Shown here piece after piece: positions 2,842 to 62,507 of a stretch of DNA of 64,000 bases. The stretch is from Thermodesulfobacteriota bacterium (lineage in GTDB: Bacteria; Desulfobacterota_D; UBA1144; Nemesobacterales; Mycalebacteriaceae): the NCBI GenBank assembly GCA_965205855.1, contig OZ242184.1, positions 1,120,001-1,184,000 of the forward strand, written 5' to 3'. A program made the translations under genes and the position numbers. How positions within the stretch are numbered: the first letter of the stretch is position 1; each line of letters starts with the position of its first letter. The notes beneath the pieces are model-generated. The model made no database searches. It was not told the DNA's origin and saw only the letters and a list, made by a program, of their open reading frames with translations.

Positions 2842-2961
2842 ATGATATCCCGGACTGTTCCAGAATATATGAGACGGCAGATACGGGCAAGAAAGGCGCA
2901 AAGAATCAGGCAATTTGTTCATGGTGAAACAGCCTCTTTGCAAATAGGAGGCGGGAAACCG

Positions 2962-2990
2962 TTGACAATTTCCCTTCAAACTTCTACCTT
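2962..2990 (+). promoter_or_regulatory. sigma70-type promoter for the epimerase gene
   Basis: TTGACA (2962-2967), 17 nt, TACCTT (2985-2990); GGAGG SD just before ATG 3011. Confidence 0.65.
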
Positions 2991-3010
2991 CTAATCGGAG
3001 GTCTGTACTC

Positions 3011-4006: not shown

Positions 4007-4076
4007 GGTTCGGAAAGGGGAAAGTCTCGAACCGCAGAACGGACTTGCAAGTTTCAAATTAAGGTATCATATCCAA

Positions 4077-6916: not shown

Positions 6917-7105
6917 TATTTTCTCCTTATTATTGGGATGTTTTCGGGCAACACACGCACCTTACACAAACAGGCGGGATTTTCAAATCCGCCCCGGACG
7001 CGGCAAAAATACCCCTTTGTTTGCTCTTTGCGGTTGAATCCGCCATTCTCTTACCAACGAATGGCGCGCGGCAGCCTTTCGCATAGATAAGAAAACAGGC
7101 AATGA

Positions 7106-7993: not shown

Positions 7994-8057
7994 GCTTATC
8001 ATGGTCTTATTATATTTTGGTTGGCAGGAGATTAACTGACCCGTGAATCTAGTAAGA

Positions 8058-8330
8058 ATGGGTAATCAAACAAATAACATAACTGCATTAATCAAGAGTT
8101 TTTTTCAAGTTGTAGAAGTAAATATTAGATACAGCTGCAACTAAATTAGCATTTGCTCTTTTGCTTCCCTTTGGATTGTGACTTATCAGCAAATTGGAAA
8201 GTTTAGTGGATGGTTGGAAAGCAAGGCCAAAAGCAAGGAAAGTAGCAAGTACAAATCAGTTCGTTTGTTAGAACCAAAATTAGAACCTCCCAAAAAGTCA
8301 AAACAAAGGCTAAAACCAGAAAAAAAATAG
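8058..8330 (+). pseudogene. AT-rich degenerate ORF of about 90 codons with one internal stop
   Basis: Frame from ATG 8058 to TAG 8330 is broken only by TAA 8142-8144; lies in an AT-rich stretch between convergent genes. Confidence 0.35.
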
Positions 8331-8443
8331 ATGAAGTAATTTGCCTGTTAAAAATTCTCAATAAGTTAGAGGATAAAACAAGAAATATAGATACGGATAG
8401 AAAATTTGAGAATTCAGCTCAGATACGTAATTCTCTCATAAAT

Positions 8444-9244
8444 TCAACGCCCTTTAAAAACGGGCTTTCTTTTTTGAGAAACGGATTTCATCCCCTCTTT
8501 GAAATCGGAGCTTGACTGCGCCCGTTGAATAATATCCCTTACGCTGTCTTCGTCTTCAGGCGCTATTTTGCGGGACTTCTTCAATATGTTTACGCTCCTT
8601 TTGGCGGCCTCAACTGAAAGTGGAGCGTTTCGGGCTATACTATCGGCTATTTTGTAAGTCGTATCCCTCAAAGACTGTCGCGGCACCACTTCGCTTACAA
8701 GACCCATCTCCAGGGATTTTTGCGCCGTAAAAATCTCCGAGGTGAAAAACATACGTTTTGCATTTGAGAAACCCACAGCCCCGACAATCCTTTGAAGCCC
8801 GGAGAACGGGTACGCGATTCCAAGTTTCCCCGGAGGCACGGACATCTTTGAATCATCCGAGCATATGATAAAGTCGCAAGCTACGGCAAGCTCAAGGCCT
8901 CCGCCCATCGCGTAGCCGCAAACCATCGCAATAACAGGACGGGGAAATCTCTCTATCGCATCGCACGCTGTGGCAAGAGGATGGGTTCGCCCGCCGTAGT
9001 CACGCAACATATCGTCGGATTCCAGAAAAGAAAAATCGTATCCCGATGAAAACGCTTTGCCTCCGCGACCCGAAAGCACCACACACCTGACAGACCCGTC
9101 TTTTCCGAATTCTTCAAGCGATGCGACAATCGAGCCAAGCACACCGGGAGAAAGAGAGTTCATTTTCTCCAGCCTGTTGATTTCAAGAGATGCGACCGCT
9201 CCTGACACTTCAACAATTAGCTCAGGGGTAGAAAAAAAATTCAA
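8444..9244 (-). CDS. Enoyl-CoA hydratase/isomerase (crotonase family)
   Basis: AFSSGYD, PVIAMVCGYAMGGGLELAVACD, RKPVFKGR. Confidence 0.92.
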   Translation of the reverse strand: MNFFSTPELIVEVSGAVASLEINRLEKMNSLSPGVLGSIVASLEEFGKDGSVRCVVLSGRGGKAFSSGYDFSFLESDDMLRDYGGRTHPLATACDAIERFPRPVIAMVCGYAMGGGLELAVACDFIICSDDSKMSVPPGKLGIAYPFSGLQRIVGAVGFSNAKRMFFTSEIFTAQKSLEMGLVSEVVPRQSLRDTTYKIADSIARNAPLSVEAAKRSVNILKKSRKIAPEDEDSVRDIIQRAQSSSDFKEGMKSVSQKRKPVFKGR

Positions 9245-9296
9245 AACAAGTACCTTTTAAAAGCCTCAAATATGTGTAGCATTTGATGGTTACATT

Positions 9297-9785
9297 ATGC
9301 CCCTTTATGAGTATGAATGCGAAGAGTGCGTGGACAGGTTCAACAGAGATATATCAAAACTTGTCAAGCAACTCAACAAGAAAACCGCCTCCGGAATTTC
9401 ACGGGAAAACCCCGGGTTTCTCTACATAGAGGTTACAAGAGAAAAAACGGGCGAGAAGGTGTTCTTACTTGGCAAAAAAAGCACTTCGCGATATGTCCGA
9501 AGGTTCAAATACCCTCTTGATCAAGGTAAAATTCTCTATCTTGAACTCAAAGACTTCAAGTTCAGCGAGCTGATGAGTCCGGGCGAAGCCTCTCCGGACT
9601 GTCCGTCATGCGGTGGCAAGGTAAGAAGAATTTTTTCAACATTCAAGGCTATATTTGACAAAAGAGACAGGGAGCCGCGCCCCGGAGATGACATTGGCTG
9701 GCATAAAGACTATAAAATTCAAAAGGATGAAGAACAGCAAAACTGGGTTGGACAGGAGAGCCTAAACCAGCGTTTCAAGGGGTAA
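9297..9785 (+). CDS. FmdB-type zinc-ribbon protein with large inserted domain (paralog 1)
   Basis: MPLYEYECEEC ... FSEL...CPSCGGKVRRIFS; 90 aa between Cys11 and Cys102. Confidence 0.8.
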   Translation: MPLYEYECEECVDRFNRDISKLVKQLNKKTASGISRENPGFLYIEVTREKTGEKVFLLGKKSTSRYVRRFKYPLDQGKILYLELKDFKFSELMSPGEASPDCPSCGGKVRRIFSTFKAIFDKRDREPRPGDDIGWHKDYKIQKDEEQQNWVGQESLNQRFKG

Positions 9786-34448: not shown

Positions 34449-34512
34449 GAAGTTAGTATTATATACTAGATAGCAGTCGTTTCTGGTAGAATTCACTTAT
34501 CGGGAGAATTTG

Positions 34513-35700
34513 ATGAAAATTGAAAATTTAAAACTAAAAAATTTTAAGGCTTTTCGTAACACAGAAATGACTAACCTGCCTGGTTTCTGCGTTATAGTCG
34601 GTGCCAACGGTAGTGGCAAAAGTACTATCTTCAGTGTGTTTGGGTTCTTGCGCGATGCAATGAATGCAAATGTTAATACAGCACTGACACGCCTTGGAGG
34701 TAGTAAGGGCTTTCAAGAGGTGCGAAGTCGTAAATCTGATGGTCCAATCGGAATTGAATTGAAGTTCCGTAAGGAAAGTGGAAGCCCACTGATAACATAC
34801 TATCTTGAGATTAATGAGAAGGATGGAAACGCCTTTGTGCAAAGAGAACTGCTTAAATATAGACGAGGAAGTCACGGACAACCATGGCGTTTTCTAGACT
34901 TCAACAATGGAAGTGGCATGGCAGTTACCAATGAACTTGATGAAGTTCGGCAGGATAGTGATTTAAAGCGAGAAGAACAGAAACTCAAATCCAATGACAT
35001 TCTTGCAATTAAGGGACTTGCACAATTTGAAAAGTTTCCAGCCGTTGTAGCGCTGGGAAATCTGATTGAGCGTTGGCATATTTCTGATTTTCATATTAGT
35101 AAAGCAAGACCTGAACAAGAAGCCGGTTATGCCGAACATCTTTCACGAGAAGGAGAAAATCTCTCTCTGGTTGTAGAATATTTACACAATCATCACCAAA
35201 AAATATTTATTCAAATTCTTGAGTCACTGAAAAATCGAGTTCCCGGAATTTCCAATGTTGAATCAAAAACTACTGAAGAAGGCAGAGTATTATTAAAATT
35301 TCAAGATGGTGCCTTTGAAGACCCGTTTCTTGCACGCTATGTGTCAGACGGCACAATTAAAATGCTTGCTTATTTAACTCTGCTCTACGACCCTGCTCCC
35401 CATGACTTACTTTGCGTTGAAGAGCCAGAAAATCAGCTTTATCCTAAATTACTAGATGAACTGGCTGAAGAATTCAGAGGATATGCTGAACGAGGTGGTC
35501 AAGTGTTTGTTTCCACACACTCTCCAGATTTTTTAAATGCCACTAAATTGGACGAAGTTTTCTGGTTGGAAAAACAGGGTGGTTATACTGCAATTAAAAG
35601 AGCATCAAAGGATGGGCAAGTCAAGAGATATATGCAAGACGGTGACAAGATGGGTTATCTTTGGAAAGAAGGCTTTTTCGGAGATGTAAACCCGAAATGA
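34513..35700 (+). CDS. ABC-type (AAA_21/OLD-like) ATPase
   Basis: LKNFKAF, GANGSGKS, SDGT signature, VEEPENQLYP, STHSP; AT-rich. Confidence 0.9.
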   Translation: MKIENLKLKNFKAFRNTEMTNLPGFCVIVGANGSGKSTIFSVFGFLRDAMNANVNTALTRLGGSKGFQEVRSRKSDGPIGIELKFRKESGSPLITYYLEINEKDGNAFVQRELLKYRRGSHGQPWRFLDFNNGSGMAVTNELDEVRQDSDLKREEQKLKSNDILAIKGLAQFEKFPAVVALGNLIERWHISDFHISKARPEQEAGYAEHLSREGENLSLVVEYLHNHHQKIFIQILESLKNRVPGISNVESKTTEEGRVLLKFQDGAFEDPFLARYVSDGTIKMLAYLTLLYDPAPHDLLCVEEPENQLYPKLLDELAEEFRGYAERGGQVFVSTHSPDFLNATKLDEVFWLEKQGGYTAIKRASKDGQVKRYMQDGDKMGYLWKEGFFGDVNPK

Positions 35701-37348: not shown

Positions 37349-40039
37349 TCAATGTGTCGGCAGACTTTCTGTGTAAGAACACTTTGCAACACTATTATAT
37401 TGAGAACAACCTAAAAACTCCCCATAACTACCTGTTTTTCTTTCCAAAACACCCTTTCCACACTGCGGGCAAATTTTGTACTTAAGCCCACAAAAGCATA
37501 TATAAGACTTGTTACTATCCAGCTCATTTAAGTCAACGGCAGCGTCACATCCTTCATTTGTACAAATTGGCAAAACACCATTACATAAGGGCCAATGTGA
37601 ACAACCATAGAAATATTTGCCATCATTGGTTGGTTTTTTTTGAATTGTTTGCCCCTTACACTCAGGGCAGAACAGTATCATTGATACTGCATTCTTCTCT
37701 ACATCAACAAAAGGTTCGTATACACCTTTACTTTCCTCCATTTTTCCCCTTGTATCTGCACGCGGTTCTATTTCCTTAATGAATTTGGACGCTTTCCCAG
37801 TTGGCACAAGTAGAAACACACCTTGTCGTGTACGAGTAACTGCAACGTAGAAAAGCCGTCTCTCTTCCGCGTTCGGGTAACTGTCATTATCCGGCAATAT
37901 CATTCTTAAAACTGGGTCATCTTGGACTTCAGACGGAAACCCCAAACCATCTGGATCTGATTTGTTTTCAAGTATGACAACCCAATCACTTTCTCTGCCT
38001 TTCGACTTGTGAATTGTGCTGAATTCCATGTCAACCTCATTTGATTTGGCGTATTGCGTAATCTCTCTCCACCTAACAGGCTTGTTGTAATTGTAGCGCC
38101 CCAGAACAAAACATTTATGTGTTTTTTGCCCCGATTGGCTGACAATATAATCAACAACTTTATCAAATGCTTTCTTGTATTCCATTGGTTCGTGGTAAAT
38201 AATTTTTATTGGCCTATCTTCATCTTTGGAAGCAATGCTTGATTTAATATCTTTGTTTAATTGTGCTGGATTTTGCGTGATAAAGGTGCTACTAAAATCA
38301 CTAACTTTTTGAGGGTATCGAAATGTTTGGTCTAAATCAGTACGTTGCATTGCATCCACATAATTTTCAAAGCCTGTAATCAGGCTTACATTTGCGCCTT
38401 GAAATTGGTAAATAGATTGCCAATCATCACCAACGCAGAATAATCTGGCATTTTCTACCTGACTTTGTAGGGATAACAAGAACTCCAAACGAACCTTTGT
38501 TATGTCTTGATATTCATCCACCAGAATATATTTATAGTTAGATTGATATTTTCCATTTTTTACATATTCCATGCCATGAACAATCATATCAGTAAAATCT
38601 ACTTCGTCATCAGATTGCAATTTATCTTCATAGAATTTCCTCAGAATATTAAATATCAGTAAAAACGCTCGGTCTCTAATAGAAACTGAACTTTCTTCAA
38701 GTTTTTGTTTGTCTAATTTGTTTTCTCTACATAAAGAGAGAAACCGTACAACCAGTTTAATAAAATTGGGAATGGGCTTGAATCTATTTTCTACAATTTG
38801 GTTAATAGTTTTATTAGATATTTGCCGTTTTTTCACACCATAATTCACTAGTTTCTCTTCAAGAGATTTTGTCAATCCACCATTCTTTTTTGTTTCGTAA
38901 CTGTATGTTTCTACAAGACGGGTTTTATTCTGCTTGTGTATATTACGTTTCCACTCAATTCCTTCATTATATTCTTTTTTATTAACATAAGGGGCGGTAT
39001 TGCCATGCTCGTCAATGCCAAAGTGTTCAACCCATATATTATATTCCGGTAAATAAAAATCCGGTTTGTATTGTTTTTTGCTTTCGTTATGTGGGTAGTC
39101 CCGTTCGTATTCCCATTCTATACCATTCAGAATCAACCAGTTCGCAATCGCAACTTCCTGGCGACTTTTGAGTTTGCTACCATCAAGACTCCTAAGTTCA
39201 AAAGGGCTAATCCTGCTAAGATATTCATCTTTGGTTTTCACTCCCTTCTCCAGATCTCCTTCAAATTGGGAAGCAGTAAAGAAATTTATAAGCAAATCAT
39301 TGGTGGAGTTACTTTTGAACAATTCCTTTATTTTTTCAATAAAAAAACCTCCCATTTTCCTTTCATCATCTGCAAAACTGCTTATGACAACTTGGGTGCT
39401 TTCAGTCTCTCGCATAATCTCAAGACCGAGAGAATGGAATGTCGTAACTTTGATATCAGAGGATATTTTTTCAATTTTTTCCTCTATCTCCTCTTGGATT
39501 TTTTTATTGTAAACAACAATCAAAATTTCAGCAGGTTTTGCCAAATTCCACTCAAAAATATATTGAATTTTACCGAGTATGGTCCGAGTCTTACCAGAAC
39601 CCGCACCGGCATTAACTAAATTGGCATCTTCATCTCTTACAACAGCAAGCCGTTGAGATTCTGTCAACCCCAGACTGTCAAACAATTTCCCGGACTCTTC
39701 CAGACGCTTCCGAACAAATTGTTTGTTAATTTCATACGATAGACCATTCTGTCTTGCCTTGAGATAAGACAGACGCAAACTTTCATCAAAAAGGTCGGGA
39801 TTTATTAATGAATGGTCAAAAGTTTTTATATAAACGCCTTCACGCGAATTCAGCCATTTTTGCACTTTTGCGTTATTTAGGTATTCACCACCGGCAAGTC
39901 TTTCAAGTTTCGCTTTGGCATTTTCAAATAAAGTCAAAAAAGATTTTGCATATTTGGCGGATTTTTCTCTTTTTTTTCTTTTATGAAGAAAGTAGAGCGT
40001 AGTAATGGAAACTGCTACGACAACAATCAAACTAAACAT
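37349..40039 (-). CDS. UvrD/helicase IV-like SF1 helicase with N-terminal TM segment, inserted PD-(D/E)xK-like domain and C-terminal zinc ribbons
   Basis: AGAGSGKT, VDEYQD, VGDDWQSIY, TIHKSKG, ERRLFYVAVTR; KSRQE..IANWL..YE..PDFYL...VEHFG; CPEC/CPQC ribbons; AT-rich. Confidence 0.9.
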   Translation of the reverse strand: MFSLIVVVAVSITTLYFLHKRKKREKSAKYAKSFLTLFENAKAKLERLAGGEYLNNAKVQKWLNSREGVYIKTFDHSLINPDLFDESLRLSYLKARQNGLSYEINKQFVRKRLEESGKLFDSLGLTESQRLAVVRDEDANLVNAGAGSGKTRTILGKIQYIFEWNLAKPAEILIVVYNKKIQEEIEEKIEKISSDIKVTTFHSLGLEIMRETESTQVVISSFADDERKMGGFFIEKIKELFKSNSTNDLLINFFTASQFEGDLEKGVKTKDEYLSRISPFELRSLDGSKLKSRQEVAIANWLILNGIEWEYERDYPHNESKKQYKPDFYLPEYNIWVEHFGIDEHGNTAPYVNKKEYNEGIEWKRNIHKQNKTRLVETYSYETKKNGGLTKSLEEKLVNYGVKKRQISNKTINQIVENRFKPIPNFIKLVVRFLSLCRENKLDKQKLEESSVSIRDRAFLLIFNILRKFYEDKLQSDDEVDFTDMIVHGMEYVKNGKYQSNYKYILVDEYQDITKVRLEFLLSLQSQVENARLFCVGDDWQSIYQFQGANVSLITGFENYVDAMQRTDLDQTFRYPQKVSDFSSTFITQNPAQLNKDIKSSIASKDEDRPIKIIYHEPMEYKKAFDKVVDYIVSQSGQKTHKCFVLGRYNYNKPVRWREITQYAKSNEVDMEFSTIHKSKGRESDWVVILENKSDPDGLGFPSEVQDDPVLRMILPDNDSYPNAEERRLFYVAVTRTRQGVFLLVPTGKASKFIKEIEPRADTRGKMEESKGVYEPFVDVEKNAVSMILFCPECKGQTIQKKPTNDGKYFYGCSHWPLCNGVLPICTNEGCDAAVDLNELDSNKSYICFCGLKYKICPQCGKGVLERKTGSYGEFLGCSQYNSVAKCSYTESLPTH

Positions 40040-45205: not shown

Positions 45206-45673
45206 TCACCTCGGCTCAAAAACTACAACCTCAACCCCGTCCATCCCTTCAAAAGCCCCAACAACAAGTGGCTTCACATTTCTCCAATCCAAACCTCCTA
45301 ACCCACAACCCAGCGCCGGAATTGCAATTAATTCAATCGCCCGTTTTTCAATTTCGTTTATGAGCGCAATAAGCCCGCTTTCTATGTATTCCATTCTGCT
45401 CTTGTCGCGGTAATGGTTTTCGGTTGGAAAATTGATTATGTATTTCGGGAACATAACGCCCGTTTCAAAAACAAACATTTCTCCGGTTTTCACCCTTCCC
45501 TGTTTGCATGCAACGGCATACGCCTCAAAATTCGCCGCAAAACGCTTTTTGAATTGAAACGCGAGCCCCGCGCCCATCGCACCAACGCAGTTAACGGGAT
45601 TGACCAACGCGTCCGCCGGTTCGTCAAAAATGCTTCCCGCTGTTTTACGCTGAATTCCCAAAATAATCCTCAC
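45206..45673 (-). CDS. Macrodomain protein (DarG-like)
   Basis: ALVNPVNCVGAMGAGLA.QFK, IINFPT, IAIPALGCGLGGLDW; GTGA overlap with the permease stop. Confidence 0.88.
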   Translation of the reverse strand: MRIILGIQRKTAGSIFDEPADALVNPVNCVGAMGAGLAFQFKKRFAANFEAYAVACKQGRVKTGEMFVFETGVMFPKYIINFPTENHYRDKSRMEYIESGLIALINEIEKRAIELIAIPALGCGLGGLDWRNVKPLVVGAFEGMDGVEVVVFEPR

Positions 45674-46707
45674 CCCGTAAAAGCGCCGTTGAGAACAACC
45701 GCAATCGCAACAATCTGCGGAACCGCCACAAGCGGGATAAATAGCGACAGTTTCCACGAACGTGTTGTGTCCTGAACGGCCATTATCTCCGTATAGTCGG
45801 TTGCGGCTCCCGCCATAAGAAAAGTGAACGAATTGCCCGGTGCGCCCGCGCGCGTGAGCAGGTCTGCGGCGAGAGGAGTCGAACCCTCGGAGCAGACTTC
45901 AATCACCGTTGCGGCAACAAGAGTCAACCCCAGACCCGCAAGGGTGGGACCGAAAAGGGTTTCATATCCGATTTCCGCCCCGAAAACTCTGACTGCGGAC
46001 GCAAAAACCACCCCGAACAGAAGCCAGCGCAAAACGGGTTTTGAATCGCGGAAAGCGGACTTGCCCACAAAAAGGGCGGTCGCCCTGTCCAGGCGGATTG
46101 CGGAAAACACTGAGAAAACCGACACTCCGTCTGGAAGCGGTTGCGCGGTGTTGGGGTTTGCCGGCAGAACGGAGATCTTCTCAAACCAGACGAAAACCAG
46201 ACCGGTAACAAACGCCACTACGGTTGAGAGAACGACAAATGCAAAAGTCCACCAGAAACCCACAAGCGCTATAAGAACAAAAGTCAACGAGAGCGAATTC
46301 CACGGACTTGCAATAAGAAAAGCCGCAACTTGCCCCATGCTTGCGCCGCGTTCGTAAAGTTTCATTCCAAGAAAAATTATTCCGTGATTGCATACATCGA
46401 AAAGCACTCCGGCAAAAACCGCCCGCGCAATTCCGCGCGCGGTTGCGCCGTTGCCGAGAACAGAAACAATTGCCTCGCGGGGAACAAGCGAAAGAAACGC
46501 AATTGAGACAACCCCCAAAGCAATTCCGGGAAGAACTGTGTTTGTTATTTCACGAACAGAAAGGGTTAAATCCGCAAAACGGACGGAAGACGGAGAGAAA
46601 AAATCCGCAATGTAAAAGAAAACAACCGCCGAAAGAGAAAGCCAGAAAAGATAATCAAAGGAACCGGTTTGATGGCAACAGCCTGATTGAGAGTTCCTCT
46701 CTTCCAT
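45670..46707 (-). CDS. Predicted permease (DUF318/ArsP-like)
   Basis: Multi-TM; DVCNHG, AFLIASPW, EVCSEGSTP, TFLMAG; start at ATG 46707. Confidence 0.85.
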   Translation of the reverse strand: MEERNSQSGCCHQTGSFDYLFWLSLSAVVFFYIADFFSPSSVRFADLTLSVREITNTVLPGIALGVVSIAFLSLVPREAIVSVLGNGATARGIARAVFAGVLFDVCNHGIIFLGMKLYERGASMGQVAAFLIASPWNSLSLTFVLIALVGFWWTFAFVVLSTVVAFVTGLVFVWFEKISVLPANPNTAQPLPDGVSVFSVFSAIRLDRATALFVGKSAFRDSKPVLRWLLFGVVFASAVRVFGAEIGYETLFGPTLAGLGLTLVAATVIEVCSEGSTPLAADLLTRAGAPGNSFTFLMAGAATDYTEIMAVQDTTRSWKLSLFIPLVAVPQIVAIAVVLNGAFTG

Positions 46708-46723
46708 AAAAATGCCCTCTTTT

Positions 46724-46806
46724 CGGAGGGCGAGGGATTCGAACCCCCAAGTCCGCAAGGACGCCGGTTTTCAAGACCGGTGCATTAGCCGTTCTGCCAG
46801 CCCTCC
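46724..46806 (-). tRNA. tRNA-Ser (TGA)
   Basis: GGAGGGC/GCCCTCC acceptor stem, CCGGT-CTTGAAA-ACCGG anticodon arm, variable arm, GGTTCGAATCC; CCA not encoded. Confidence 0.95.
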
Positions 46807-46832: not shown

Positions 46833-48497
46833 TCAAACCGCAGTTCTGTGCGCGGTTTCGTCTTCTTTGAGCATGGGAAGGTATTTTCCACCAAGTATTA
46901 TGTTGCCTTGTTGTGCGCCGCTCAGAAGTCTTTCCACCATGTAATCCCTGTTCGTGCCGACTATGTTCACCCCGTGGTCGCTCTCCACAAGGCAGAGAAG
47001 CTTCATATCACGGTTCTCCGACGGAGCTGTATCGGCAACCTTATATACCGCCGCATAATTTAGAAGAGCCGCTTCAACGGTTCCGCACGGAAGAGACGGA
47101 TTGCGCGCGCCTTCGCAGAATTCGCCGTTTTTAAACCATTCGGGAGACGGATAGCCGTGAAAATGCAGTATTGACATACCGTCATTTTCCACAAGCTCCG
47201 GCATATAAATAGCAAAAGAAAACGCTTGGGCAAGAATTACAAAGGTGTCAAAAGAAGGTCTGATGTCACGGCGCGAAAGATCCATGCCACGCGGGATTTG
47301 AAGATGAAGCTGCCCGTTAACAATTCCCATTCGCACAATGTCACTCATCGGGTCAAGGTTTGTTTTATCGCACCCCGAACGCGAGGTTACCGTCCAGAGA
47401 TGGGGAACCTGTCTGAAAAATTCCCTGCCTGCCACTCTTATTTTCACATACCACCTACCGGACTGTGCCGTCCTGACATCGGTAAGCTCTTTCACGGAAG
47501 AAAAAGTCTCCCATTCCGCCGCCGTGACTTCTCTGGGGCCTTCGTATTCGGGCGGCTCAACAATTGCTATAAACCCGTAGGAAACGCCCGTTCTGCCGTC
47601 AAGTATGTTGCTTAAAACATCGCGGTGGGAAACGCGCCGTATCCTCTCACTGAATTTGTATCCCTCCGGGAAAAGCCCGGACGGACGGACCATCTTGCCG
47701 AGGTTTGCAAGCGCTTCGGTATTTTCATTTTCCGCAGGGTCAAATTCCTCTATTTTGAATCTGCTCAAAATTGGCGGTTTTATCGGAGCGTAGATTTTCG
47801 GCACAAGTGAGTTAAGAACAAAACCGTCAATCTGCTCATGAGCATAAACCGAATCTGACAGGTTCATGTTGATAATGGCGAAGTTCTCACCGGAAACCCC
47901 GATGACAATCTCCGACATGGTGCCGAGAAGATGGCTGAGCCCTATCTCTATTTTGACATTGTATGCCGTATCCTTGTCTTCAAACTCTTCCTCAAGCGGC
48001 ACAATTGTTATAACCTGCGTGCCGAAAGGGTCCTGGATGTACTTCTGTGTAAAATCGTCCGCCCAGCCGCTTATTTTCAGTATCTCCATAACAGACCTAC
48101 CGGGCTTTCTGACCAGTCCGTAAATACCCTCGGCAAACGCGCTCATAGCTCTGCGCAGGATTGAAGGACGCCTCTCAACATCCACAACAGCATTTATGTC
48201 ACGCTTGACGCGTCTTATTTTGAACAGACGGGAAATTAATCCGTAGGCGTTGTCCTGAACGGTCGCGTCCTCCCACGACACAACAACCACGCCAAGTACT
48301 TCAAGGCTTTTTTGAAGCTTTTCTGCGAAGGATTTTATTTGAGTGTTTCCATAGCCGTCCGGGACGGGACGGAAAGTAACCCTGACATTCGGCGCCATCT
48401 CGCGCGGGTCGGTCGGGTTGGCAATATCACGCAACTGAGGCATTCCCGTGAGGGAAACTATGGTTTGAAGGTCAATGTCGGCTAATCTCTGGCTCAT
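46833..48497 (-). CDS. 554-aa protein: unknown N-terminal domain plus class II aldolase/adducin-like C-terminal domain
   Basis: GVSYGFI, TSRSGCDK, RPSFD, ILHFHG, PCGT.E.A, DHGV.IVG occur in class II aldolase order; the ORF is secure, the function is inferred. Confidence 0.7.
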   Translation of the reverse strand: MSQRLADIDLQTIVSLTGMPQLRDIANPTDPREMAPNVRVTFRPVPDGYGNTQIKSFAEKLQKSLEVLGVVVVSWEDATVQDNAYGLISRLFKIRRVKRDINAVVDVERRPSILRRAMSAFAEGIYGLVRKPGRSVMEILKISGWADDFTQKYIQDPFGTQVITIVPLEEEFEDKDTAYNVKIEIGLSHLLGTMSEIVIGVSGENFAIINMNLSDSVYAHEQIDGFVLNSLVPKIYAPIKPPILSRFKIEEFDPAENENTEALANLGKMVRPSGLFPEGYKFSERIRRVSHRDVLSNILDGRTGVSYGFIAIVEPPEYEGPREVTAAEWETFSSVKELTDVRTAQSGRWYVKIRVAGREFFRQVPHLWTVTSRSGCDKTNLDPMSDIVRMGIVNGQLHLQIPRGMDLSRRDIRPSFDTFVILAQAFSFAIYMPELVENDGMSILHFHGYPSPEWFKNGEFCEGARNPSLPCGTVEAALLNYAAVYKVADTAPSENRDMKLLCLVESDHGVNIVGTNRDYMVERLLSGAQQGNIILGGKYLPMLKEDETAHRTAV

Positions 48498-48506
48498 TCT
48501 TTCTCC

Positions 48507-49283
48507 TTATTTCAACGTACCGATGAGGGCTTCTTCGCTTCCGATATGTTTTTCCACCTCGTCAAGCATCACACTTCTTACCGCCTGTTCAAGTTTCTCC
48601 ATTCCCTCTCTGCCCGACGGGAAATTGTCTGGATAGACGGGAGGAAGAAACTCAACCGTCATCTCCGTGCCCGTGCCGAGTTTGAATTCGCCCTTTTTTT
48701 TCACTTTCCTTCCACCCCATATAACCATTGGAACAACCGGTGCGCCAGAAAGAGACGCAAGCAGAAAACCACCTTTTTTGAAACTCAAAAGCCGCCCGCT
48801 TTCGCTCCGTGTGCCTTCGGGGGCAAGCACAACGGTATGTTTTTTTCTACTGATTGCACGTGCCATCAACTTCAACTGTCTGGAATCTCCGCTTCCCCCG
48901 TCTCTGGATACAAAATAATGCCCTGACGTCTTTGAAAGCCACCCGACAAAAGGAATCTTCAAAACCTCGTCTTTCATAACCAGCTTATACTGCCCCGGCA
49001 GGGAGGCGACAAGAGCGGGAATGTCAAACGAGCTCTGATGATTGTACATTATAACTGACGGCACGGACGGAATATTTTCAGTACCACCCACATTCAAGCC
49101 CACTCCGTGGAAGATAAACATGGATTTTCCCCACGGACGAACCGCAAGCGGTATGACCAATTTCGGCGCGATAAGGGAAAGAACCATCCCAATAGTGCCA
49201 AATACCACGATGGCAATCAAAGAAAGAAAAAGAGCGAAAAGTGTTTTCAGCATTGGAAAGGGGAAGATTACATTCCGCGCCAC
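48507..49283 (-). CDS. plsC: 1-acyl-sn-glycerol-3-phosphate acyltransferase family
   Basis: NHQSSFD, PFVGW, PEGTRS, FKKGGF. Confidence 0.9.
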   Translation of the reverse strand: MARNVIFPFPMLKTLFALFLSLIAIVVFGTIGMVLSLIAPKLVIPLAVRPWGKSMFIFHGVGLNVGGTENIPSVPSVIMYNHQSSFDIPALVASLPGQYKLVMKDEVLKIPFVGWLSKTSGHYFVSRDGGSGDSRQLKLMARAISRKKHTVVLAPEGTRSESGRLLSFKKGGFLLASLSGAPVVPMVIWGGRKVKKKGEFKLGTGTEMTVEFLPPVYPDNFPSGREGMEKLEQAVRSVMLDEVEKHIGSEEALIGTLK

Positions 49284-49289
49284 TCTGTT

Positions 49290-50189
49290 TCAAGCGGACA
49301 GGATGCCCGAAGGTGTCAGCACATTAAGTGCCCCCGCGTCTGTCGACACATTATGACAGCCGGCTTTTAGAACAAAAGGCTCGCCGTCCATATGGGCGGG
49401 AAGGTCTCTTTCCGTTTCCACTGTCGCACAGCGAGATTGAAACCGTCTCATCCACCCGCCTTGCGCCGCACCGCCCATAACAGACACAAGTCGTGCGATC
49501 CGCATAAAAAAAGACATGTCGCTTATGAAATGAAAATCAAGCAGACCGTCATTGGGGCGGGCGGCGGGAGAGATTTTGAACCCTCCCTGACCGGCCCCGT
49601 TGGAAACCCCGGTGAGAAGGCAGCGCCCCTCTACCTCCACGGAGGAAGACGACAAACGCACGGGAAAACCCTCAAACCCGAACGCCGTCGCGCCTGCGGA
49701 CGCGAGATATCCGAAAAAACCACCGAGAAATCTGAACCTGGGAAAGACCGACGCTATGGCTCCGTCCATCCCTATCCCAAGCCCGTTGATAAAACCCCTG
49801 CCATCGAGCAAACCCATATCAACCTTCATACATTTCCCCGAGAACACCGTCTCAAGAGCTTCCGCCGTGGAAACCGGCACACCGCACGCGGCTGGGAAAT
49901 CATTGCCGCTTCCGCCCGCGACAATGCCGAATTTCACATTGGAGCCCGCAATTGCGTTTGCTATGTCGCTCGAAGTCCCGTCTCCGCCAACCGAAACTAT
50001 GTGTGAAAAACCCTCCCTTACGCCGTCAGAAGCAATGCGTCCGGCGTCTCCGGACGAACCGGTAAGGCGGATTTCAAATACCATCCGTTTCGAACGGGAA
50101 AAAGACGATATAGCTTTCTCGCTATCCCGCGCGTTACGCCTACCGGCAACCGGGTTGACAATAAAAAGATAGGATTTTCCGTCTGTCAT
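49290..50189 (-). CDS. Diacylglycerol/lipid kinase (YegS/DgkB family)
   Basis: VNPVAG, VGGDGT, GSGNDF, GIGMDG, DGE; start at ATG 50189. Confidence 0.9.
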   Translation of the reverse strand: MTDGKSYLFIVNPVAGRRNARDSEKAISSFSRSKRMVFEIRLTGSSGDAGRIASDGVREGFSHIVSVGGDGTSSDIANAIAGSNVKFGIVAGGSGNDFPAACGVPVSTAEALETVFSGKCMKVDMGLLDGRGFINGLGIGMDGAIASVFPRFRFLGGFFGYLASAGATAFGFEGFPVRLSSSSVEVEGRCLLTGVSNGAGQGGFKISPAARPNDGLLDFHFISDMSFFMRIARLVSVMGGAAQGGWMRRFQSRCATVETERDLPAHMDGEPFVLKAGCHNVSTDAGALNVLTPSGILSA

Positions 50190-57197: not shown

Positions 57198-58238
57198 ATG
57201 CCTTTCAGGACGATTGAATGGAAAAACGGTTCGGCGGTAGTAATTCTTGACCAGAGAAAACTGCCTGAAGAAGAAAGTTATCTTCAGTGCTCAACGCACG
57301 AAGAAGTGGCGTATGCGATAAGTTCCATGGCGATAAGGGGAGCTCCGGCAATCGGCATTGCGGCGTCAATGGGGTTCGCACTGGGAGCGGCGCAAAACAG
57401 CGGCGCAAAAACAAAAGAGATATTTCTCGAAAGCATGATAAATGTTCGCGAGACTCTTGAGCAAACCCGTCCCACGGCGGTCAATCTTTTCTGGGCACTT
57501 GAGCGGATGGAAAATCTGTTGTTGAAAAACCCACAGGCGGCGCCCGGAGAACTTGCAGGAATCTTGAGAACTGAAGCCGTGACTATATGCGAGGAAGACC
57601 TCAATCTCTGTAAAAAAATAGGGAAGAACGGGCAATCCCTCATTAAAAACGATTCTACCATTATGACTCACTGCAACGCGGGAGGTCTCGCAACCGCCGG
57701 ATACGGGACGGCTCTGGGAATTATAAGAGCCGCGCATGACTCTGGCAAAAAAGTGAATGTCATATCACCCGAAACGCGACCGCTGTTACAGGGTTCCCGT
57801 CTTACCGCCTGGGAACTCTCGTATGACAAAATACCCGTTACTGTTATAACAGACACTGCGGCGGGATACACAATGAAAAACAAAACCGTGGATGCGATAA
57901 TCGTTGGTGCGGACAGAATTGCCGCAAACGGTGATGTGGCAAATAAAATAGGAACCTACCAGCTGTCGGTACTCGCAAAGCATCACGGAATCCCGTTCCA
58001 TGTGGCGGCGCCATGGTCAACATTTGACATGAATTGCGCCAGCGGAAAAGGCATTCCCATTGAGCAAAGGTCGTGGCGGGAAGTGTCCGGAATCGGGAAT
58101 AAAAGAACCGCGGCGGAGGGAGCGGAAATCATAAACCCGGCTTTTGATGTTACTCCGGCAGAAAATATAGACAGCATCATAACCGACAGGGGAGTAATCA
58201 GACATCCCTGCCGTGAAGAGATTGAGAAGTTGCGTTAA
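57198..58238 (+). CDS. mtnA: S-methyl-5-thioribose-1-phosphate isomerase
   Basis: DQRKLP, IRGAPAIG, RPTAVNL, THCNAG, ETRP..QG.RLTAWE, ANKIGT. Confidence 0.96.
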   Translation: MPFRTIEWKNGSAVVILDQRKLPEEESYLQCSTHEEVAYAISSMAIRGAPAIGIAASMGFALGAAQNSGAKTKEIFLESMINVRETLEQTRPTAVNLFWALERMENLLLKNPQAAPGELAGILRTEAVTICEEDLNLCKKIGKNGQSLIKNDSTIMTHCNAGGLATAGYGTALGIIRAAHDSGKKVNVISPETRPLLQGSRLTAWELSYDKIPVTVITDTAAGYTMKNKTVDAIIVGADRIAANGDVANKIGTYQLSVLAKHHGIPFHVAAPWSTFDMNCASGKGIPIEQRSWREVSGIGNKRTAAEGAEIINPAFDVTPAENIDSIITDRGVIRHPCREEIEKLR

Positions 58239-58916: not shown

Positions 58917-60401
58917 GTGTTAAGGTTTTTTTCAATTATTTCAGCGCTATGCGTTGTGTTTCTCCCCAATACCTCATATGCAGGATTTGACGAATCCATA
59001 GAAAGGACTATAAGACCCATATCGGACTTTATGCTGCAATGGGTTTTCTATTCGGTTCCGGTTTTCGGATCCGATGTCAAACTCATTGTCGCCCTGCTTC
59101 TCGGCTCTGGAGTTTTCTGCACTTTCTATTTTCGATTTATAAACATAAGGGGATTCCGCCGAGCCGTAGAACTTGTGACCGGAAAATTTGACACCGCAAG
59201 CGACCCCGGAGAGATATCACATTTTCAGGCTCTCACAACCGCTCTTTCCGCAACCATAGGCCTTGGCAACATCGCGGGAGTCGCCATTGCTGTTTCAAAA
59301 GGCGGACCCGGGGCGACATTCTGGATGATAGTCGCGGGATTTCTCGGAATGTCCCTGAAGTTCTGCGAGTGCACTCTGGCCGTCAAATACAGAAAAGAAA
59401 ATCCGGACGGCTCGGTTTCGGGCGGTCCGATGTACTACCTTTCACAAGGTTTGGGGGAAATTGGGAAGAAAAATCTTGGAAAAGTGCTTGCGGTATTTTT
59501 CGCAATTTTCTGCATAGGCGGATCAATAGGCGCCGGATGTATGTTTCAGGCAAACCAGCTGTTCAAACAGGTTTTATATGTCACGGGCGAACCGGCAATG
59601 CTGTCCGGGTGGCTTTTCGGTATTGTAGTCGCGGCGTTGGTCGCATTGGTGATAATCGGCGGGATTAGGAAAATAGCCAGAGTAACTTCCAAACTTGTTC
59701 CGTTTATGACGGTTTTATACCTTACGGCGGCCGGCGTAGTAATTGCGTTTTATATTGAGCGGGTGCCCGAAGCCGTGGGAATTATGTTGAGCGGCGCTTT
59801 CACACCGGAGGGTGTGGAGGGTGGAGTGCTGGGGGTGATGACATGGGGATTTCAGAGAGCCGTATTTTCCAACGAAGCGGGAATCGGTTCGGCGGCCATA
59901 GCTCACAGCGCGGTTAAAACCAAATATCCCGCGACCGAGGGGCTGGTCTCTATCATCGGGCCGTTTGTGGACACCATTATCATCTGCACCATGACTGCTC
60001 TTGTAATAGTCATGGCGGGAACCTACAAAATGTCCGGGGGTGAAATTGGCGGGATTGAGATAACATCCGCAGCTTTCGCGTCTTCAATAAGTTGGTTTCC
60101 GTACGTTCTGGCTCTTGTGGTAATGATATTCGCTTTCTCTACGATGATATCGTGGAGTTACTACGGAATGAAATCCTGGACTTTTCTGTTCGGCGAAACT
60201 AAAGCAAACAGACTCACCTTCAATATGCTGTTCTGTGTTTTTATCGTAATCGGTTCGGCGGTCAGTCTGTCATCGGTCATAAACATCACGGACGCGATGA
60301 TATTCCTTATGGGAGTTGTCAATATGACCGGGGTTTTTCTGCTGATAAGAAAAGTCAGAGAGGATTTGCAATCCTACACTGACACCACAAAGGGCCTCTA
60401 A
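58917..60401 (+). CDS. Alanine/glycine:cation symporter (AGCS family)
   Basis: SHFQAL..ALSATIGLGNIAGV, GGPGA.FWM, GGPMYY, FSNEAG.GS; start uncertain (GTG 58917 follows TTGACA-16-TACTAT at 58854-58881). Confidence 0.93.
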   Translation: MLRFFSIISALCVVFLPNTSYAGFDESIERTIRPISDFMLQWVFYSVPVFGSDVKLIVALLLGSGVFCTFYFRFINIRGFRRAVELVTGKFDTASDPGEISHFQALTTALSATIGLGNIAGVAIAVSKGGPGATFWMIVAGFLGMSLKFCECTLAVKYRKENPDGSVSGGPMYYLSQGLGEIGKKNLGKVLAVFFAIFCIGGSIGAGCMFQANQLFKQVLYVTGEPAMLSGWLFGIVVAALVALVIIGGIRKIARVTSKLVPFMTVLYLTAAGVVIAFYIERVPEAVGIMLSGAFTPEGVEGGVLGVMTWGFQRAVFSNEAGIGSAAIAHSAVKTKYPATEGLVSIIGPFVDTIIICTMTALVIVMAGTYKMSGGEIGGIEITSAAFASSISWFPYVLALVVMIFAFSTMISWSYYGMKSWTFLFGETKANRLTFNMLFCVFIVIGSAVSLSSVINITDAMIFLMGVVNMTGVFLLIRKVREDLQSYTDTTKGL

Positions 60402-61699
60402 AATCCCTTACGCAGGTATCGTCCCCTGACTATTCTGAATATATCTTCCAACTGGTGGATGAAAATACCGACAAGGCCAAGCGTTGTTATGCCAAGAACC
60501 CAGGGATAGCCTCCCATAGCGGCAAAAAAGACAAAAGCCAAAGAGTAAAGATTTCTTCTCATTACCGGACGCAGAAAAGCCAGCAAACGCCTGACGAGAG
60601 AGAGAGTTTCGTTTCCGACAATCTCATCAACACGGTGATATGAAACCAGACTGCCCGAATGCGTATAGCGAACCATAAAAATGAAAGACCATATAAGAAA
60701 AAACACAAAGACGGATATGTTTACCAGACCCAGGAAAAGAGCAAGAGACTGATTCTCGCCGTGCAGGTAGTAGCCTATGGGAACGCTGATAACAAAACCG
60801 GCTATTGTTATCTGATCACTTATGGTATCCACCCATTCTCCTCTTTTTGTTTCAAGAAGTTTTATTCTGGCAACTTCGCCGTCACAACGGTCAAGTATCG
60901 CGGCAATCTGCATAAACACCGCGCCTAGGAGAGGATAACCCGCAAGGTAGGACAAAATACAAGGCACACCCGCCACAATATTGGTCAAAACACTAATATG
61001 ATTGGGAGTCAGGGAGGTTTTCCGCGCAAGCCATGAACTTATCGGCAATGACAGCCTGCCGTTTATATTTCTCGCTATCCAGCCGGTTGCATTTTTACCA
61101 ACACTTGCAAAAAGAAACCGTTGTGCTTCGACAATAACTGCCAGAGTGTTTTCCAGATTCATCGCATACATATCTTCAGGAACCTCGTATTCCTTCATCC
61201 CCTCTTCTCTGTAGCGATCTATCCATCTGAACATATCGCAGTCTTCAACAAGGTCAGAGGTCGCTTCGGGCTCCACAATAACCGCGCCAAGCCTTTTTTC
61301 ATTGTTGCCGTTTGGTGTACCTTCTCCGGAAATTTTCATCAAAACCGCTCCGCCGGATGACGGCTTTTCTTCCAAAAACTTTTCCAGAAGCTGTCTCTTG
61401 ATAAACAGGTTTGACTGCAAGACCAGAATATTACCGCCACCGCGCGCACAACTGTTGAACGCCTTTCCCGGATTTGCGAAGGTTATTTTCGCTTCTCCCG
61501 AAACGGTTTCGGGGAGCATCTCAATCAGCGCGGAGTCCGGTGTGGTTGAAACAACGGTAATATCTTTAACGCCCGCTTTGATACACAAGCGCACAAGCCT
61601 TCGAAGTTGCGTAAGGCCTCCTATTGAAATTGCAGAGAAATCCTTGAGGGACTCGCCGCTCAAACCGGTCCCGTGAGCCAGAATCAGGGCGTTCGTCAT
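60398..61699 (-). CDS. CDP-alcohol phosphatidyltransferase with degenerate N-terminal nucleotidyltransferase-like domain
   Basis: TPN, DRCDGEVAR...GEWVDTISD CDP-OH motif; N-terminal ALILAHG. Confidence 0.85.
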   Translation of the reverse strand: MTNALILAHGTGLSGESLKDFSAISIGGLTQLRRLVRLCIKAGVKDITVVSTTPDSALIEMLPETVSGEAKITFANPGKAFNSCARGGGNILVLQSNLFIKRQLLEKFLEEKPSSGGAVLMKISGEGTPNGNNEKRLGAVIVEPEATSDLVEDCDMFRWIDRYREEGMKEYEVPEDMYAMNLENTLAVIVEAQRFLFASVGKNATGWIARNINGRLSLPISSWLARKTSLTPNHISVLTNIVAGVPCILSYLAGYPLLGAVFMQIAAILDRCDGEVARIKLLETKRGEWVDTISDQITIAGFVISVPIGYYLHGENQSLALFLGLVNISVFVFFLIWSFIFMVRYTHSGSLVSYHRVDEIVGNETLSLVRRLLAFLRPVMRRNLYSLAFVFFAAMGGYPWVLGITTLGLVGIFIHQLEDIFRIVRGRYLRKGF

Positions 61700-61706
61700 T
61701 GAATGG

Positions 61707-62507
61707 TTAACCCGAAGAAACTATCTTGAGAGGTTTCTTAACATTGGAACCCACAAGCGAAGCACGGCGATAGTTGCGGAATATAAATTTGTCCGAATTG
61801 TTTTTTGCGGCAAACAAGTCTCGTGGATAGTCCACATCCATCCAGAACATGTCGCCTATGTCAAACGGTGTTATCTTGTAACCTTTATTCAAAAGTCTCT
61901 GTATGCAGGAGACATACCATTTCTGGTGGACGTTTCCTCCCCTGATTTCCTCTTCGGAGGCTCTTTTTATCATCTCCACACCCGTGCCCCTGAAAAGTCG
62001 CACTCCCACGGATTCATAATGGATATCATCTTTAATATCTTTTGTTACCAGTGATACATAGCCGCTTTCCAGTCTGATCTTCATGTCCTCTTCATCGTAG
62101 CATTCCTTTTTTTTAACTGGAAGGACTATGTTTTCTCCTCTTGTGTTGATCATTTTATCCAGAATATCTATCTCAAAGATGTCGTCTCCGTTCATTATGA
62201 TAAGGTCATCATCCATCTCTCCCCGCGCCAGACAAAGCGAAACAAGACTGTTTGTGGTTTTATAAAAAGGGTTGTAGATGGTGCTGATCTTCATTCCGAG
62301 ACTGTCGTAGTTGCGAATAAACGACTCAACTTTGTCAAAACCGAAACCGACAACAATAACAACATCATTGATGCCACAGTCTCTTATGTGGTTTATCTGG
62401 TTTCGAAGAATTGAAGTGCCACCCACATTGAGAAGACACTTGGGAACGTGTTCGGTATAGGGACGTAACCTGCTCCCAAGACCCGCGGCAAGAATTATCG
62501 CTTTCAT
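61707..62507 (-). CDS. Phosphocholine/sugar-phosphate cytidylyltransferase (LicC/IPCT-like)
   Basis: AIILAAGLGSRL...PKCLL, NPFY..TN, NGD, EEDMK, WMDVD. Confidence 0.88.
   Translation of the reverse strand: MKAIILAAGLGSRLRPYTEHVPKCLLNVGGTSILRNQINHIRDCGINDVVIVVGFGFDKVESFIRNYDSLGMKISTIYNPFYKTTNSLVSLCLARGEMDDDLIIMNGDDIFEIDILDKMINTRGENIVLPVKKKECYDEEDMKIRLESGYVSLVTKDIKDDIHYESVGVRLFRGTGVEMIKRASEEEIRGGNVHQKWYVSCIQRLLNKGYKITPFDIGDMFWMDVDYPRDLFAAKNNSDKFIFRNYRRASLVGSNVKKPLKIVSSG

Follow-up and report, generated by a model that had tools for sequence, protein, structure and literature searches.

We analysed a window of 64,000 nucleotides, the whole stretch of DNA considered here, which covers positions 1120001-1184000 of contig OZ242184.1 (assembly GCA_965205855.1) in the single-contig 1.40-Mb genome, 98% complete, of a Thermodesulfobacteriota bacterium. 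By the names that sources give to its closest protein relatives it belongs among Dadabacteria / 'Candidatus Mycalebacterium'. This genome is labelled G000 below and its own phylum is referred to as Dadabacteria; genera (g), families (f), genomes (G), loci (L) and proteins (P) carry our own labels. Three minus-strand open reading frames (ORFs) with intergenic gaps of 6 and 9 nt encode, in this order, a lipid kinase, a PlsC-type acyltransferase and a 554-amino acid (aa) protein of an uncharacterised family, which we name X554. The way in which bacteria begin to make phospholipids counts as a solved question. The present case concerns an entire order of bacteria, widespread in marine settings and in association with sponges, that keeps fatty acid synthesis, PlsC and CdsA and is without recognisable first steps; exactly at this gap, a conserved single-copy gene whose family is unknown adjoins PlsC. 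That the genome is without the canonical first steps of phospholipid synthesis is our main point, and one that an earlier note on this DNA had not seen.

The three genes and the X554 family

The first gene belongs to the YegS/BmrU/DAGK lipid kinases, as it matches DAGK_cat (PF00781, 84 bits), YegS_C (PF19279, 44 bits) and TIGR00147 (122.6 bits, with a cut-off of 118.65), a membership that does not imply a substrate. Its internal Met17 is a possible alternative start, with which the gene would end at 50189; this was the right end of the span 46833..50189 proposed earlier, of which the left end holds; the ORF runs to 50237. The second gene has both catalytic motifs of the PlsC/LPAAT family intact in its translation, HX4D (NHQSSFD) and EGTR (PEGTR). 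Against TIGR00530 it scores 86.8 bits, under the cut-off of 103, and since its scores fall below the equivalog cut-offs they do not fix the acceptor specificity of this enzyme. X554 matches no Pfam and no NCBIfam family at E<=0.1 and has no relative in the PDB by sequence or by profile. The co-orientation and the short gaps described in the earlier note agree with the ORF coordinates, and its three assignments (a DAGK/YegS kinase, a PlsC neighbour and a 554-aa protein without a known family) agree with the Pfam and NCBIfam scans. Terminator-like sites are weakly enriched in the region, with 13 observed and 9.2 expected. The features of the locus are collected in Table 1.

Table 1. Positions of the three genes, of the regions and motifs of X554, and of the putative end of the transcription unit
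Feature	Positions	Strand	Basis
YegS/BmrU/DAGK-family soluble lipid kinase, 315 aa	49290..50237	-	PF00781, PF19279, TIGR00147
PlsC-type 1-acylglycerol-3-phosphate acyltransferase, 258 aa, hydrophobic N-terminal anchor	48507..49283	-	PF01553, 96 bits
X554, 554 aa, uncharacterised family, candidate entry enzyme of phosphatidate synthesis	46833..48497	-	no family match
X554 N-terminal region, aa 1-255, alpha/beta-looking, weakly conserved, length varying by subfamily	47733..48497	-	conservation profile, domain variants
X554 C-terminal candidate catalytic region, aa 286-554	46836..47642	-	invariant residues
RSGCDK, aa 373-378, candidate phosphate-binding loop	47364..47381	-	S374, G375 and K378 invariant in 61/61; aligns with AraD KPSG
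PSFDT, aa 414-418, candidate acid/fourth metal ligand	47244..47258	-	S415 and D417 invariant; aligns with AraD KPSSDT and FucA PSSE
HFH, aa 445-447, candidate metal ligands	47157..47165	-	H445 and H447 invariant
C471 of the NPxxxC motif, candidate for a metal-site or acyl-thioester residue	47085..47087	-	invariant; no class II aldolase counterpart
DHG, aa 507-509	46971..46979	-	H508 and G509 invariant; H508 61 residues past H447, as in the third-ligand spacing of class II aldolases
Terminator-like hairpin and T-run about 100 nt past the X554 stop, likely end of the transcription unit	46714..46731	-	weak evidence

The X554 family is real but narrow, as its homologues (more than 747 in a collection of 5.8 billion proteins) form no more than 134 clusters at 50% identity within a set of 1.84 billion representatives. 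Invariant residues were called on an alignment of 61 diverse full-length members (A1), in which 16 residues are the same in 61/61 sequences (P241, R302, G308, S374, G375, K378, D386, S415, D417, H445, H447, G463, C471, E505, H508 and G509); by our count 14 of the 16 fall in the C-terminal 270 residues. The mean frequency of the top residue is 0.33 in the N-terminal half and 0.43 in the C-terminal half, and it is lowest (0.23) in residues 321-362, a stretch that behaves as an insertion and matches the insertion of ~50 aa reported earlier. The motifs quoted in the earlier note are all found in the translation and coincide with invariant columns of this alignment. As to two of its other points, basic amphipathic helices in the N-terminal half are not conserved features of the family, and X554, for which a membrane association was proposed, has no evident membrane-spanning segment in its translation as read by eye. 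The family alignment has no conserved nucleotide-binding motif in the N-terminal region and no conserved dinucleotide-binding motif in either half. A protein atlas searched with the whole of X554 and with its C-terminal part gave only PLAT clusters at 0.77-0.79, which is under the level of shuffled sequences. A FastTree tree of 66 family members shows two deep clades: the Dadabacteria proteins fall in clade A (16 rows), along with forms that have TubC_N as an N-terminal docking domain, and clade B (50 rows) holds every member that the sources name Patescibacteria.

Conserved neighbours and carrier-protein links

About 16 kb around X554 was compared in 20 Dadabacteria genomes, with one locus for each of 19 genera and a second genome of g19. 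In 20/20 of these loci a PF01553 acyltransferase adjoins X554, and 19/20 have the kinase in the cluster. The commonest order is rpsB <> kinase-PlsC-X554. In family f2 the order is PlsC-X554-(HisPhos)-kinase, away from rpsB, and as the order differs while the trio is intact, the three genes have been kept together through rearrangement. A genome of family f9 without X554 has rpsB followed directly by rsmI-gatA-gshB, which in X554 carriers border the block on its far side; since the same flanks occur without the block, kinase-PlsC-X554 is gained or lost as a unit. The neighbourhood rpsB-tsf-pyrH-frr is also conserved in Dadabacteria, and therefore the synteny within this phylum is partly a matter of inheritance. 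Directly 3' of X554 and on the same strand, a PF00300 histidine phosphatase is found in 12 of the 20 loci (e.g. L032:8144-8755, L040:2230-2835 and 10 others) and an NAD(P) dehydrogenase of the HIBADH type in six (e.g. L038:9227-10132 and five others). Such a phosphatase or dehydrogenase could catalyse another step of this route, for example as a phosphatase/mutase or a keto-reductase. The own genus has neither gene at the locus, and its phosphatase homologue is located elsewhere in the genome.

The association with an acyltransferase recurs in Patescibacteria, where a PF01553 protein is encoded upstream of the X554 homologue in 40 of 59 loci (L051-L109). Directly 3' of the homologue, 57 of these 59 loci have a histidine kinase of ~540 aa with a seven-transmembrane (7TM) region at its N-terminus (HisKA_7TM, HisKA and HATPase_c); several loci have a second copy of it upstream on the other strand, and a membrane-embedded sensor that is tied to a lipid module could monitor the state of the membrane. 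No DAGK-family kinase was found among the 635 ORFs called in the 59 loci, and the conserved core across the two phyla is thus the acyltransferase with X554. The linkage to lipid genes claimed in the earlier note therefore stands for PlsC in two phyla and, for the kinase, in Dadabacteria only.

This distribution bears on the function that had first been proposed for X554, a membrane-associated lyase, epimerase or decarboxylase of the class II aldolase type, with a phosphorylated lipid or head group from the neighbouring kinase as its substrate. The near-constant company of the kinase in Dadabacteria and the aldolase-like motifs discussed below fit this proposal, and the phosphatase or the dehydrogenase that follows X554 suggests some chemistry of small phospho-metabolites. 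We nevertheless give it little credence, as no kinase is linked in the Patescibacteria loci, no membrane span is evident, the amphipathic helices are not conserved and the complementarity of X554 with GpsA and PlsX (see below) is not explained by it. With the kinase link limited to Dadabacteria, the conserved logic of the module is not that X554 uses what the kinase makes.

A different kind of evidence comes from the architecture of the homologues. In P0136 (837 aa) a TubC_N docking domain, the X554 core and a PF00975 thioesterase form a single chain, and six family proteins besides P0136 also carry TubC_N; the domain (PF18563) was found in 4 of 86 scanned members (P0124, P0125, P0127 and P0138) and, in a separate scan, in P0131, P0134, P0136 and P0160. 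It is absent from X554 itself (P0001) and from seven other members of the Dadabacteria type that were scanned (P0003, P0007, P0011, P0012, P0014, P0020 and P0044). On the metagenome contig L133, the sole metagenome locus recovered for a docking-domain form, a TubC_N-X554 homologue is the last gene of a cluster (44-9534) of the Pfa or polyunsaturated fatty acid (PUFA) synthase type, with a protein that combines an acyl carrier protein (ACP) with KR and DH, a KS/AT protein, an enoyl reductase of the PfaD type and an acyltransferase of the PapA5/condensation type. For P0136 no relative was found in metagenome contigs. Based on the docking-domain, thioesterase and Pfa architectures, the X554 core takes the position at which a fatty acyl chain bound to ACP has to be handed over. 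The predicted complex of X554 (alignment A1) with the ACP of its own genome has a score of 0.00 and a mark of 0.32, which speaks neither for nor against binding.

The same contig encodes a canonical 253-aa class II aldolase (L133:19615-20376), 8 kb downstream of the cluster and on the opposite strand, a proximity that is probably coincidental. The sources name P0007 "TubC N-terminal docking domain-related" and use "non-ribosomal peptide synthase" for family members; neither name is borne out for the Dadabacteria proteins, P0007 among them, which have no docking domain.

The gap in phosphatidate synthesis

Bacterial phosphatidate synthesis canonically starts with PlsB, or with PlsX and PlsY, acting on glycerol-3-phosphate that is made by GpsA. 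G000 has FabF, an ACP, CdsA and seven AMP-binding enzymes. It encodes exactly one PF01553 acyltransferase, the neighbour of X554, and the same is true of 6/6 genomes of the genus; because this single match is the PlsC-type gene, PlsB is absent. PlsY, PlsX and GpsA are absent by whole-genome Pfam scans in which the positive controls fired, and GpsA and PlsX are absent also when all 9,655 six-frame ORFs of the genome are searched with unfiltered hidden Markov models (HMMs) built from the proteins of relatives. GlpK was not found in the genome, nor was any homologue of E. coli GlpQ, UgpQ, GlpT, UgpA/E/B or GlpA. The organism thus produces fatty acids and its CdsA requires phosphatidate, but neither a source of glycerol-3-phosphate nor a first acyltransferase is recognised in it.

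The phyletic pattern was counted in 120 genomes of the phylum, 94 of them of high quality. X554 is present in 89 (73 of the 94), PlsX in eight (genera g3, g10, g11 and g12), all of them without X554, and PlsY in one, as a fragment. Since the raw tally for PF01210 (106/120) mixes true GpsA with weak partial matches to other Rossmann proteins, true GpsA was defined by our own criterion of E<1e-30 and a full-length match. Its holders are the eight PlsX genomes, all 19 genomes of f9 and four X554 carriers (G021, G029, G098 and G100). Accordingly, 85 genomes have X554 only, 27 have GpsA only, four have both and four have neither (G010, G045, G082 and G091). GlpK occurs in only 2 of the 120, which leaves 83 X554 carriers with neither GpsA nor GlpK.

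Several single genomes deserve mention in this context. The eight genomes with PlsX have no detectable PlsY, so that another enzyme may use acyl-phosphate there or PlsX may do something else. One relative with PlsX and GpsA and no X554 has an 861-aa frame (G002:C21:24357-26720) that joins AMP-binding, carrier (PP-binding) and PF01553 domains, an Aas-like fusion of acyl-ACP synthetase and acyltransferase. Within g19, X554 is present in 35 of 36 genomes, the exception being G045 (a single contig, 91% complete), which also lacks true GpsA and PlsX and has only a weak PF01553 match (E=1.6e-7). The cassette may be lost there or may fall in an assembly gap, and a genuine loss might make the organism auxotrophic for lipids.

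One explanation of the pattern is that X554 only supplies the backbone, as a non-homologous, metal-dependent enzyme that converts dihydroxyacetone phosphate (DHAP) or a related triose phosphate into glycerol phosphate, either the sn-3 or even the sn-1 form, while PlsC-type enzymes carry out both acylations. GpsA is indeed the cleanest complement of X554, with 116 of the 120 genomes having at least one of the two, 112 exactly one and four both. The near absence of GlpK and the motifs of a DHAP-type site point the same way, as does f9, which does without PlsX, PlsY and X554 and keeps GpsA. Nevertheless, we regard this explanation as rather unlikely. X554 has no conserved dinucleotide-binding motif, and its profile gives only 0.1-0.6% against GpsA and the HIBADH-like reductase in hhalign; the docking and thioesterase fusions and the Pfa-type cluster suit an enzyme that handles acyl chains better than they suit a reductase. 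Moreover, the f9 genomes (GpsA, and no X554, PlsX or PlsY) have two to three strong PF01553 copies each, against one in the own genus.

Another hypothesis is that X554 is an analogue of PlsX, an acyl-ACP:phosphate transacylase or a transacylase for scavenged lipids that feeds PlsC, with the backbone coming from elsewhere. X554 and PlsX never occur together (0/120), the links to carrier proteins would suit such an enzyme, its invariant Cys and His could form an acyl-enzyme, and the Patescibacteria carriers are without another acyl-activating enzyme. This too seems improbable to us: PlsY, which would use the acyl-phosphate, is absent from the phylum apart from the one fragment, the function of PlsX is dispensable in f9, which has neither PlsX nor X554, the missing GpsA and GlpK would be left unexplained, and X554 shows no homology to PlsX (0.14%).

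X554 could also stand outside core lipid synthesis, with an accessory, regulatory or natural-product tailoring role, in which case the gene order would be inherited and the loss of GpsA and PlsX would be a parallel effect of lineage, for instance with imported lipids. The conserved rpsB-tsf-pyrH-frr neighbourhood and the relatives of X554 in clusters that resemble those of secondary metabolism agree with this, and in a published genome analysis (PMC8115339) Dadabacteria are predicted to take up phospholipids. Such a role is nonetheless poorly likely, as the PlsC-X554 link recurs in a second phylum and survives the rearrangement in f2, X554 is near-universal and single-copy even in genomes of 1.2-2 Mb, and keeping type II fatty acid synthesis (FAS II), PlsC and CdsA would make no sense without a route to lysophosphatidate.

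Active-site resemblance, proposed role and known systems

The earlier note placed the C-terminal part of X554 in the class II aldolase/adducin fold. The motifs stand in order and in register, and no HMM or profile score is significant. Aldolase_II (PF00596) stays under the gathering cut-off in 86/86 family members scanned, with a single match in P0162 (12 bits, E=0.2), and X554 itself has no match at E<=0.1. In hhalign, X554 gives a probability of 0.2% against 11 aldolases of f9 and 0.57% against an alignment of eight sequences that includes E. coli AraD, FucA, RhaD and UlaF, with a score of 18.1 as compared to 16.7 for the reversed query; the templates are shallow (Neff 2-4). A local HMM made from 12 aldolases gave scattered noise against 442 stored proteins (the family and the search matches). 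None of the sequence-based tests for homology with aldolase II reaches statistical significance, and this weighs against the mechanism set out below.

At the level of motifs the picture is different. The one hhalign alignment obtained with the eight-sequence set spans 172 collinear columns, and its register holds at each functional motif: RSG of X554 pairs with KPSG of AraD, SDIV..G with DMVV..G, RPSFDT with KPSSDT, HFH with HTH and DHGVNIVG with SHGPFAWG. Along the phosphate-loop stretch, RSG..K..L..SDIV..G of X554 lies over KPSG...DMVV..G, a match at motif level only. The lone Pfam match (P0162 residues 319-351, HMM 28-59) falls, without a shift of register, on X554 365-398, which is the SG...DIV...G block. 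The pattern of a metal site is present, with D417, H445, H447 and H508 in register with AraD D76/H95/H97/H171 and FucA E73/H92/H94/H155, which we take to be the metal ligands of these enzymes, at positions computed in their sequences.

The pattern PS.[DE]...H.H...HG, for which the spacings were set generously, was found in 14 of 16 real aldolases, in one of 1,865 six-frame ORFs of the genome, which is X554, and in none of 1,220 shuffled family sequences. With the spacing window that we set, it matches only 15 of the 61 members of the family, as the insert is longer in clade B; the looser H.H-(55-75)-HG matches 60/61 members and 16/16 aldolases against a background of ~1%. Of the 22 strongly conserved aldolase columns, five pair with the same residue (G, H, H, H, G) in the hhalign consensus of X554, as compared to 0/22 for the reversed aldolase alignment and 52/1,724 pooled over twelve decoys, although the raw count of five is inside the decoy range of 0-10. 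These tests of motif resemblance, both the pattern counts and the column pairs, are post hoc. Judging by motifs, the chance that X554 has a class II aldolase-like active site is about even.

No Aldolase_II is found in G000 or in any of the 101 genomes of the X554-bearing order, in a scan that does recover the aldolases of f9 (18/19). The latter, from class-level relatives with genomes of ~1 Mb (e.g. L122-L132), are proteins of ~370 aa in which Aldolase_II covers about half of the length. Two homologies to enzymes of the gap were tried and rejected. X554 is not a homologue of PlsX (no PF02504 match, and the hhalign value cited above for five PlsX of relatives), nor of GpsA (no PF01210 or PF07479 match, 0.1-0.2% in hhalign, and no conserved glycine-rich Rossmann GxGxxG motif). 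When the two halves of X554 were compared separately with GpsA, PlsX, the HIBADH-like reductase, DAGK, the histidine phosphatase and PlsC, all hhalign probabilities were <=3%.

The earlier note had offered as an alternative a divergent MtnB that partners the MtnA-like isomerase 9 kb away; we consider this together with an Ald2, the role being in methionine/5'-deoxynucleoside salvage. An IF-2B/MtnA-like gene does lie at 57198-58238, and no canonical Aldolase_II is found in the genome. The MtnA-like gene, however, is present in 116/120 genomes (94/94 of high quality), including all nine genomes of g3, g7, g10, g11 and g12, genera in which both X554 and Aldolase_II are absent, and it never adjoins X554, which is tied to PlsC. 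Because the gene is universal, also in lineages without X554 or a class II aldolase, this alternative is disfavoured and we consider it hardly credible.

The reading that we prefer, tentatively and at a little under an even chance, is that X554 acts with the adjacent PlsC at the entry of phosphatidic-acid synthesis and takes the place of the usual front end, which consists of GpsA and of PlsX/PlsY or PlsB. It is based on the PlsC link in two phyla, the absence of GpsA and PlsX, the lack of another route to lysophosphatidate, the docking to ACP-dependent synthases and the DHAP-like layout of the site. The C-terminal region would hold a metal site (D417, H445, H447 and H508) and a phosphate loop (S374-G375, K378 and S415), laid out as in class II aldolases; the roles meant here are those that the motif residues have in FucA and AraD. 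X554 may bind a phosphorylated three-carbon backbone of the DHAP type and join it to an acyl chain borne by ACP, possibly via C471, to give acyl-DHAP or lysophosphatidate, which PlsC would turn into the phosphatidate that CdsA uses. The kinase probably returns diacylglycerol, or some other lipid alcohol, to this pool. That X554 forms acyl-DHAP or lysophosphatidate directly from an ACP-borne chain and so bypasses free glycerol-3-phosphate, in Dadabacteria and the Patescibacteria clade, is a more doubtful proposition than its place at the entry.

Several observations weigh against this reading. X554 and GpsA occur together in four Dadabacteria genomes, and another four lack both. The genomes with GpsA and without X554 belong to few lineages (g3 and g10 in f2, g11 and g12 in f3, and f9), and because the genomes are related to one another, no more than one to three evolutionary events may underlie the complementarity. 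In most g19 genomes there are two PF01553 matches, so that a PlsC-like first acyltransferase is possible outside the own genus. The predicted uptake of phospholipids could lessen the need for a de novo backbone. An acyl-DHAP route would need a step that reduces the keto group, and the own genome has no candidate for it: the HIBADH-like gene has no homologue there, and no acyl-DHAP reductase is linked to the locus.

The main difficulty for the favoured acyl-ACP mechanism is the gene content of Patescibacteria. In the carriers that were examined there are one or two PF01553 proteins; FabF, CdsA and AMP-binding enzymes are each found in 0/3, and ACP gives at most a weak match (1/3), so an acyl-ACP donor cannot be general in this phylum. 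PlsY (0/3), PlsX (0/5) and true GpsA (0/8) were not found in the carriers either. The acyltransferase and X554 must work on scavenged material there. The complementarity of X554 with GpsA cannot be replicated in Patescibacteria, because GpsA is rare there anyway: in the order of G120 it occurs in only 2 of 121 genomes, X554 occurs in four (G120 counted) and PF01553 in 47, all four X554 carriers included. X554 is rare in Patescibacteria, as it was not found in an even sample of 300 other genomes of the phylum.

In a full-text literature search, with subscription journals outside its reach, we found no description of the X554 family, no report of bacteria that lack GpsA, PlsX, PlsY and PlsB and have FAS II, PlsC and CdsA, and no description of a housekeeping bacterial acyl-DHAP pathway. 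If the preferred reading is true, X554 would be a new entry enzyme for an essential pathway, calls of a missing pathway in Dadabacteria and in some Candidate Phyla Radiation (CPR) reconstructions would be corrected, and the role of the docked homologues at the end of PUFA- and polyketide-type synthases would be explained. Should the acyl-DHAP or lysophosphatidate chemistry hold as well, this would be a third bacterial initiation system, with acyl transfer as a new chemistry for the class II aldolase fold. We class the locus as a module of phosphatidate synthesis that has an unknown enzyme for the canonical first steps; with the proposed mechanism right, the enzyme itself would be categorically new.

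Other features of the window were also noted. A 183-aa macro-domain protein (45206-45757, minus strand) reaches 217.9 bits against the DarG antitoxin model, under the cut-off of 250, over model positions 4-148 of 338, that is, the macro domain only; no DarT-like partner is evident among the ORFs listed nearby, and the protein may be a stand-alone ADP-ribose hydrolase. Between 34000 and 40000 the GC content is low (0.35-0.41, as compared to ~0.49 elsewhere), and this stretch, which holds an ATPase of the AAA_21/AbiEii type (34510-35700) and an 896-aa UvrD-family helicase with C-terminal zinc ribbons of the Top1 type (37349-40039), looks like a horizontally acquired islet of the defence type. 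On the minus strand at 60398-62507, a 266-aa nucleotidyltransferase is directly followed by a 433-aa protein with a CDP-alcohol phosphatidyltransferase domain, a pair typical of the synthesis of CDP-alcohol head groups or compatible solutes (e.g. of the inositol-phosphate type), which may bear on the polar lipids or solutes of the organism.

Compared with the class II aldolase/adducin proteins (FucA, RhaD, AraD/UlaF and MtnB), X554 has the same order of motifs at similar spacing, namely an S/T-G loop, D-[ILM]-V...G, P-S-x-[DE], HxH and an H-G that follows 60-73 residues later. It differs from them in its extra N-terminal region of ~255 aa and an insertion of ~40-50 aa, in the distance from the acid to HxH (27 residues, against 12-18 in the aldolases examined), in four additional invariant residues (R302, K378, C471 and E505), and in its context, which is one of lipid genes, whereas that of class II aldolases is one of sugar phosphates.

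With PlsX/PlsY/PlsB and GpsA, X554 would share its position upstream of PlsC, and it is never found with PlsX and almost never with GpsA; it has no homology to PlsX or GpsA, and one soluble two-domain protein would replace two or three enzymes. An acyl-DHAP route exists in eukaryotes, with GNPAT/DHAPAT and an acyl-DHAP reductase, and bacterial enzymes of the AfsA type transfer an acyl chain from ACP to DHAP in butyrolactone synthesis. The chemistry proposed for X554 is of this kind, as an acceptor of the DHAP type would be acylated from a carrier-bound chain, although GNPAT belongs to PF01553 and AfsA has a hot-dog fold, and X554 matches neither family in Pfam scans. Finally, in a myxobacterial Pfa protein with an AGPAT domain an acyltransferase is attached to a PUFA synthase. 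Such domains belong to PF01553 and the X554 core is unrelated to them, but the likeness lies in the arrangement, in which a docked enzyme passes the finished chain to lipids, as the TubC_N-X554 homologue at the end of the L133 cluster may do.

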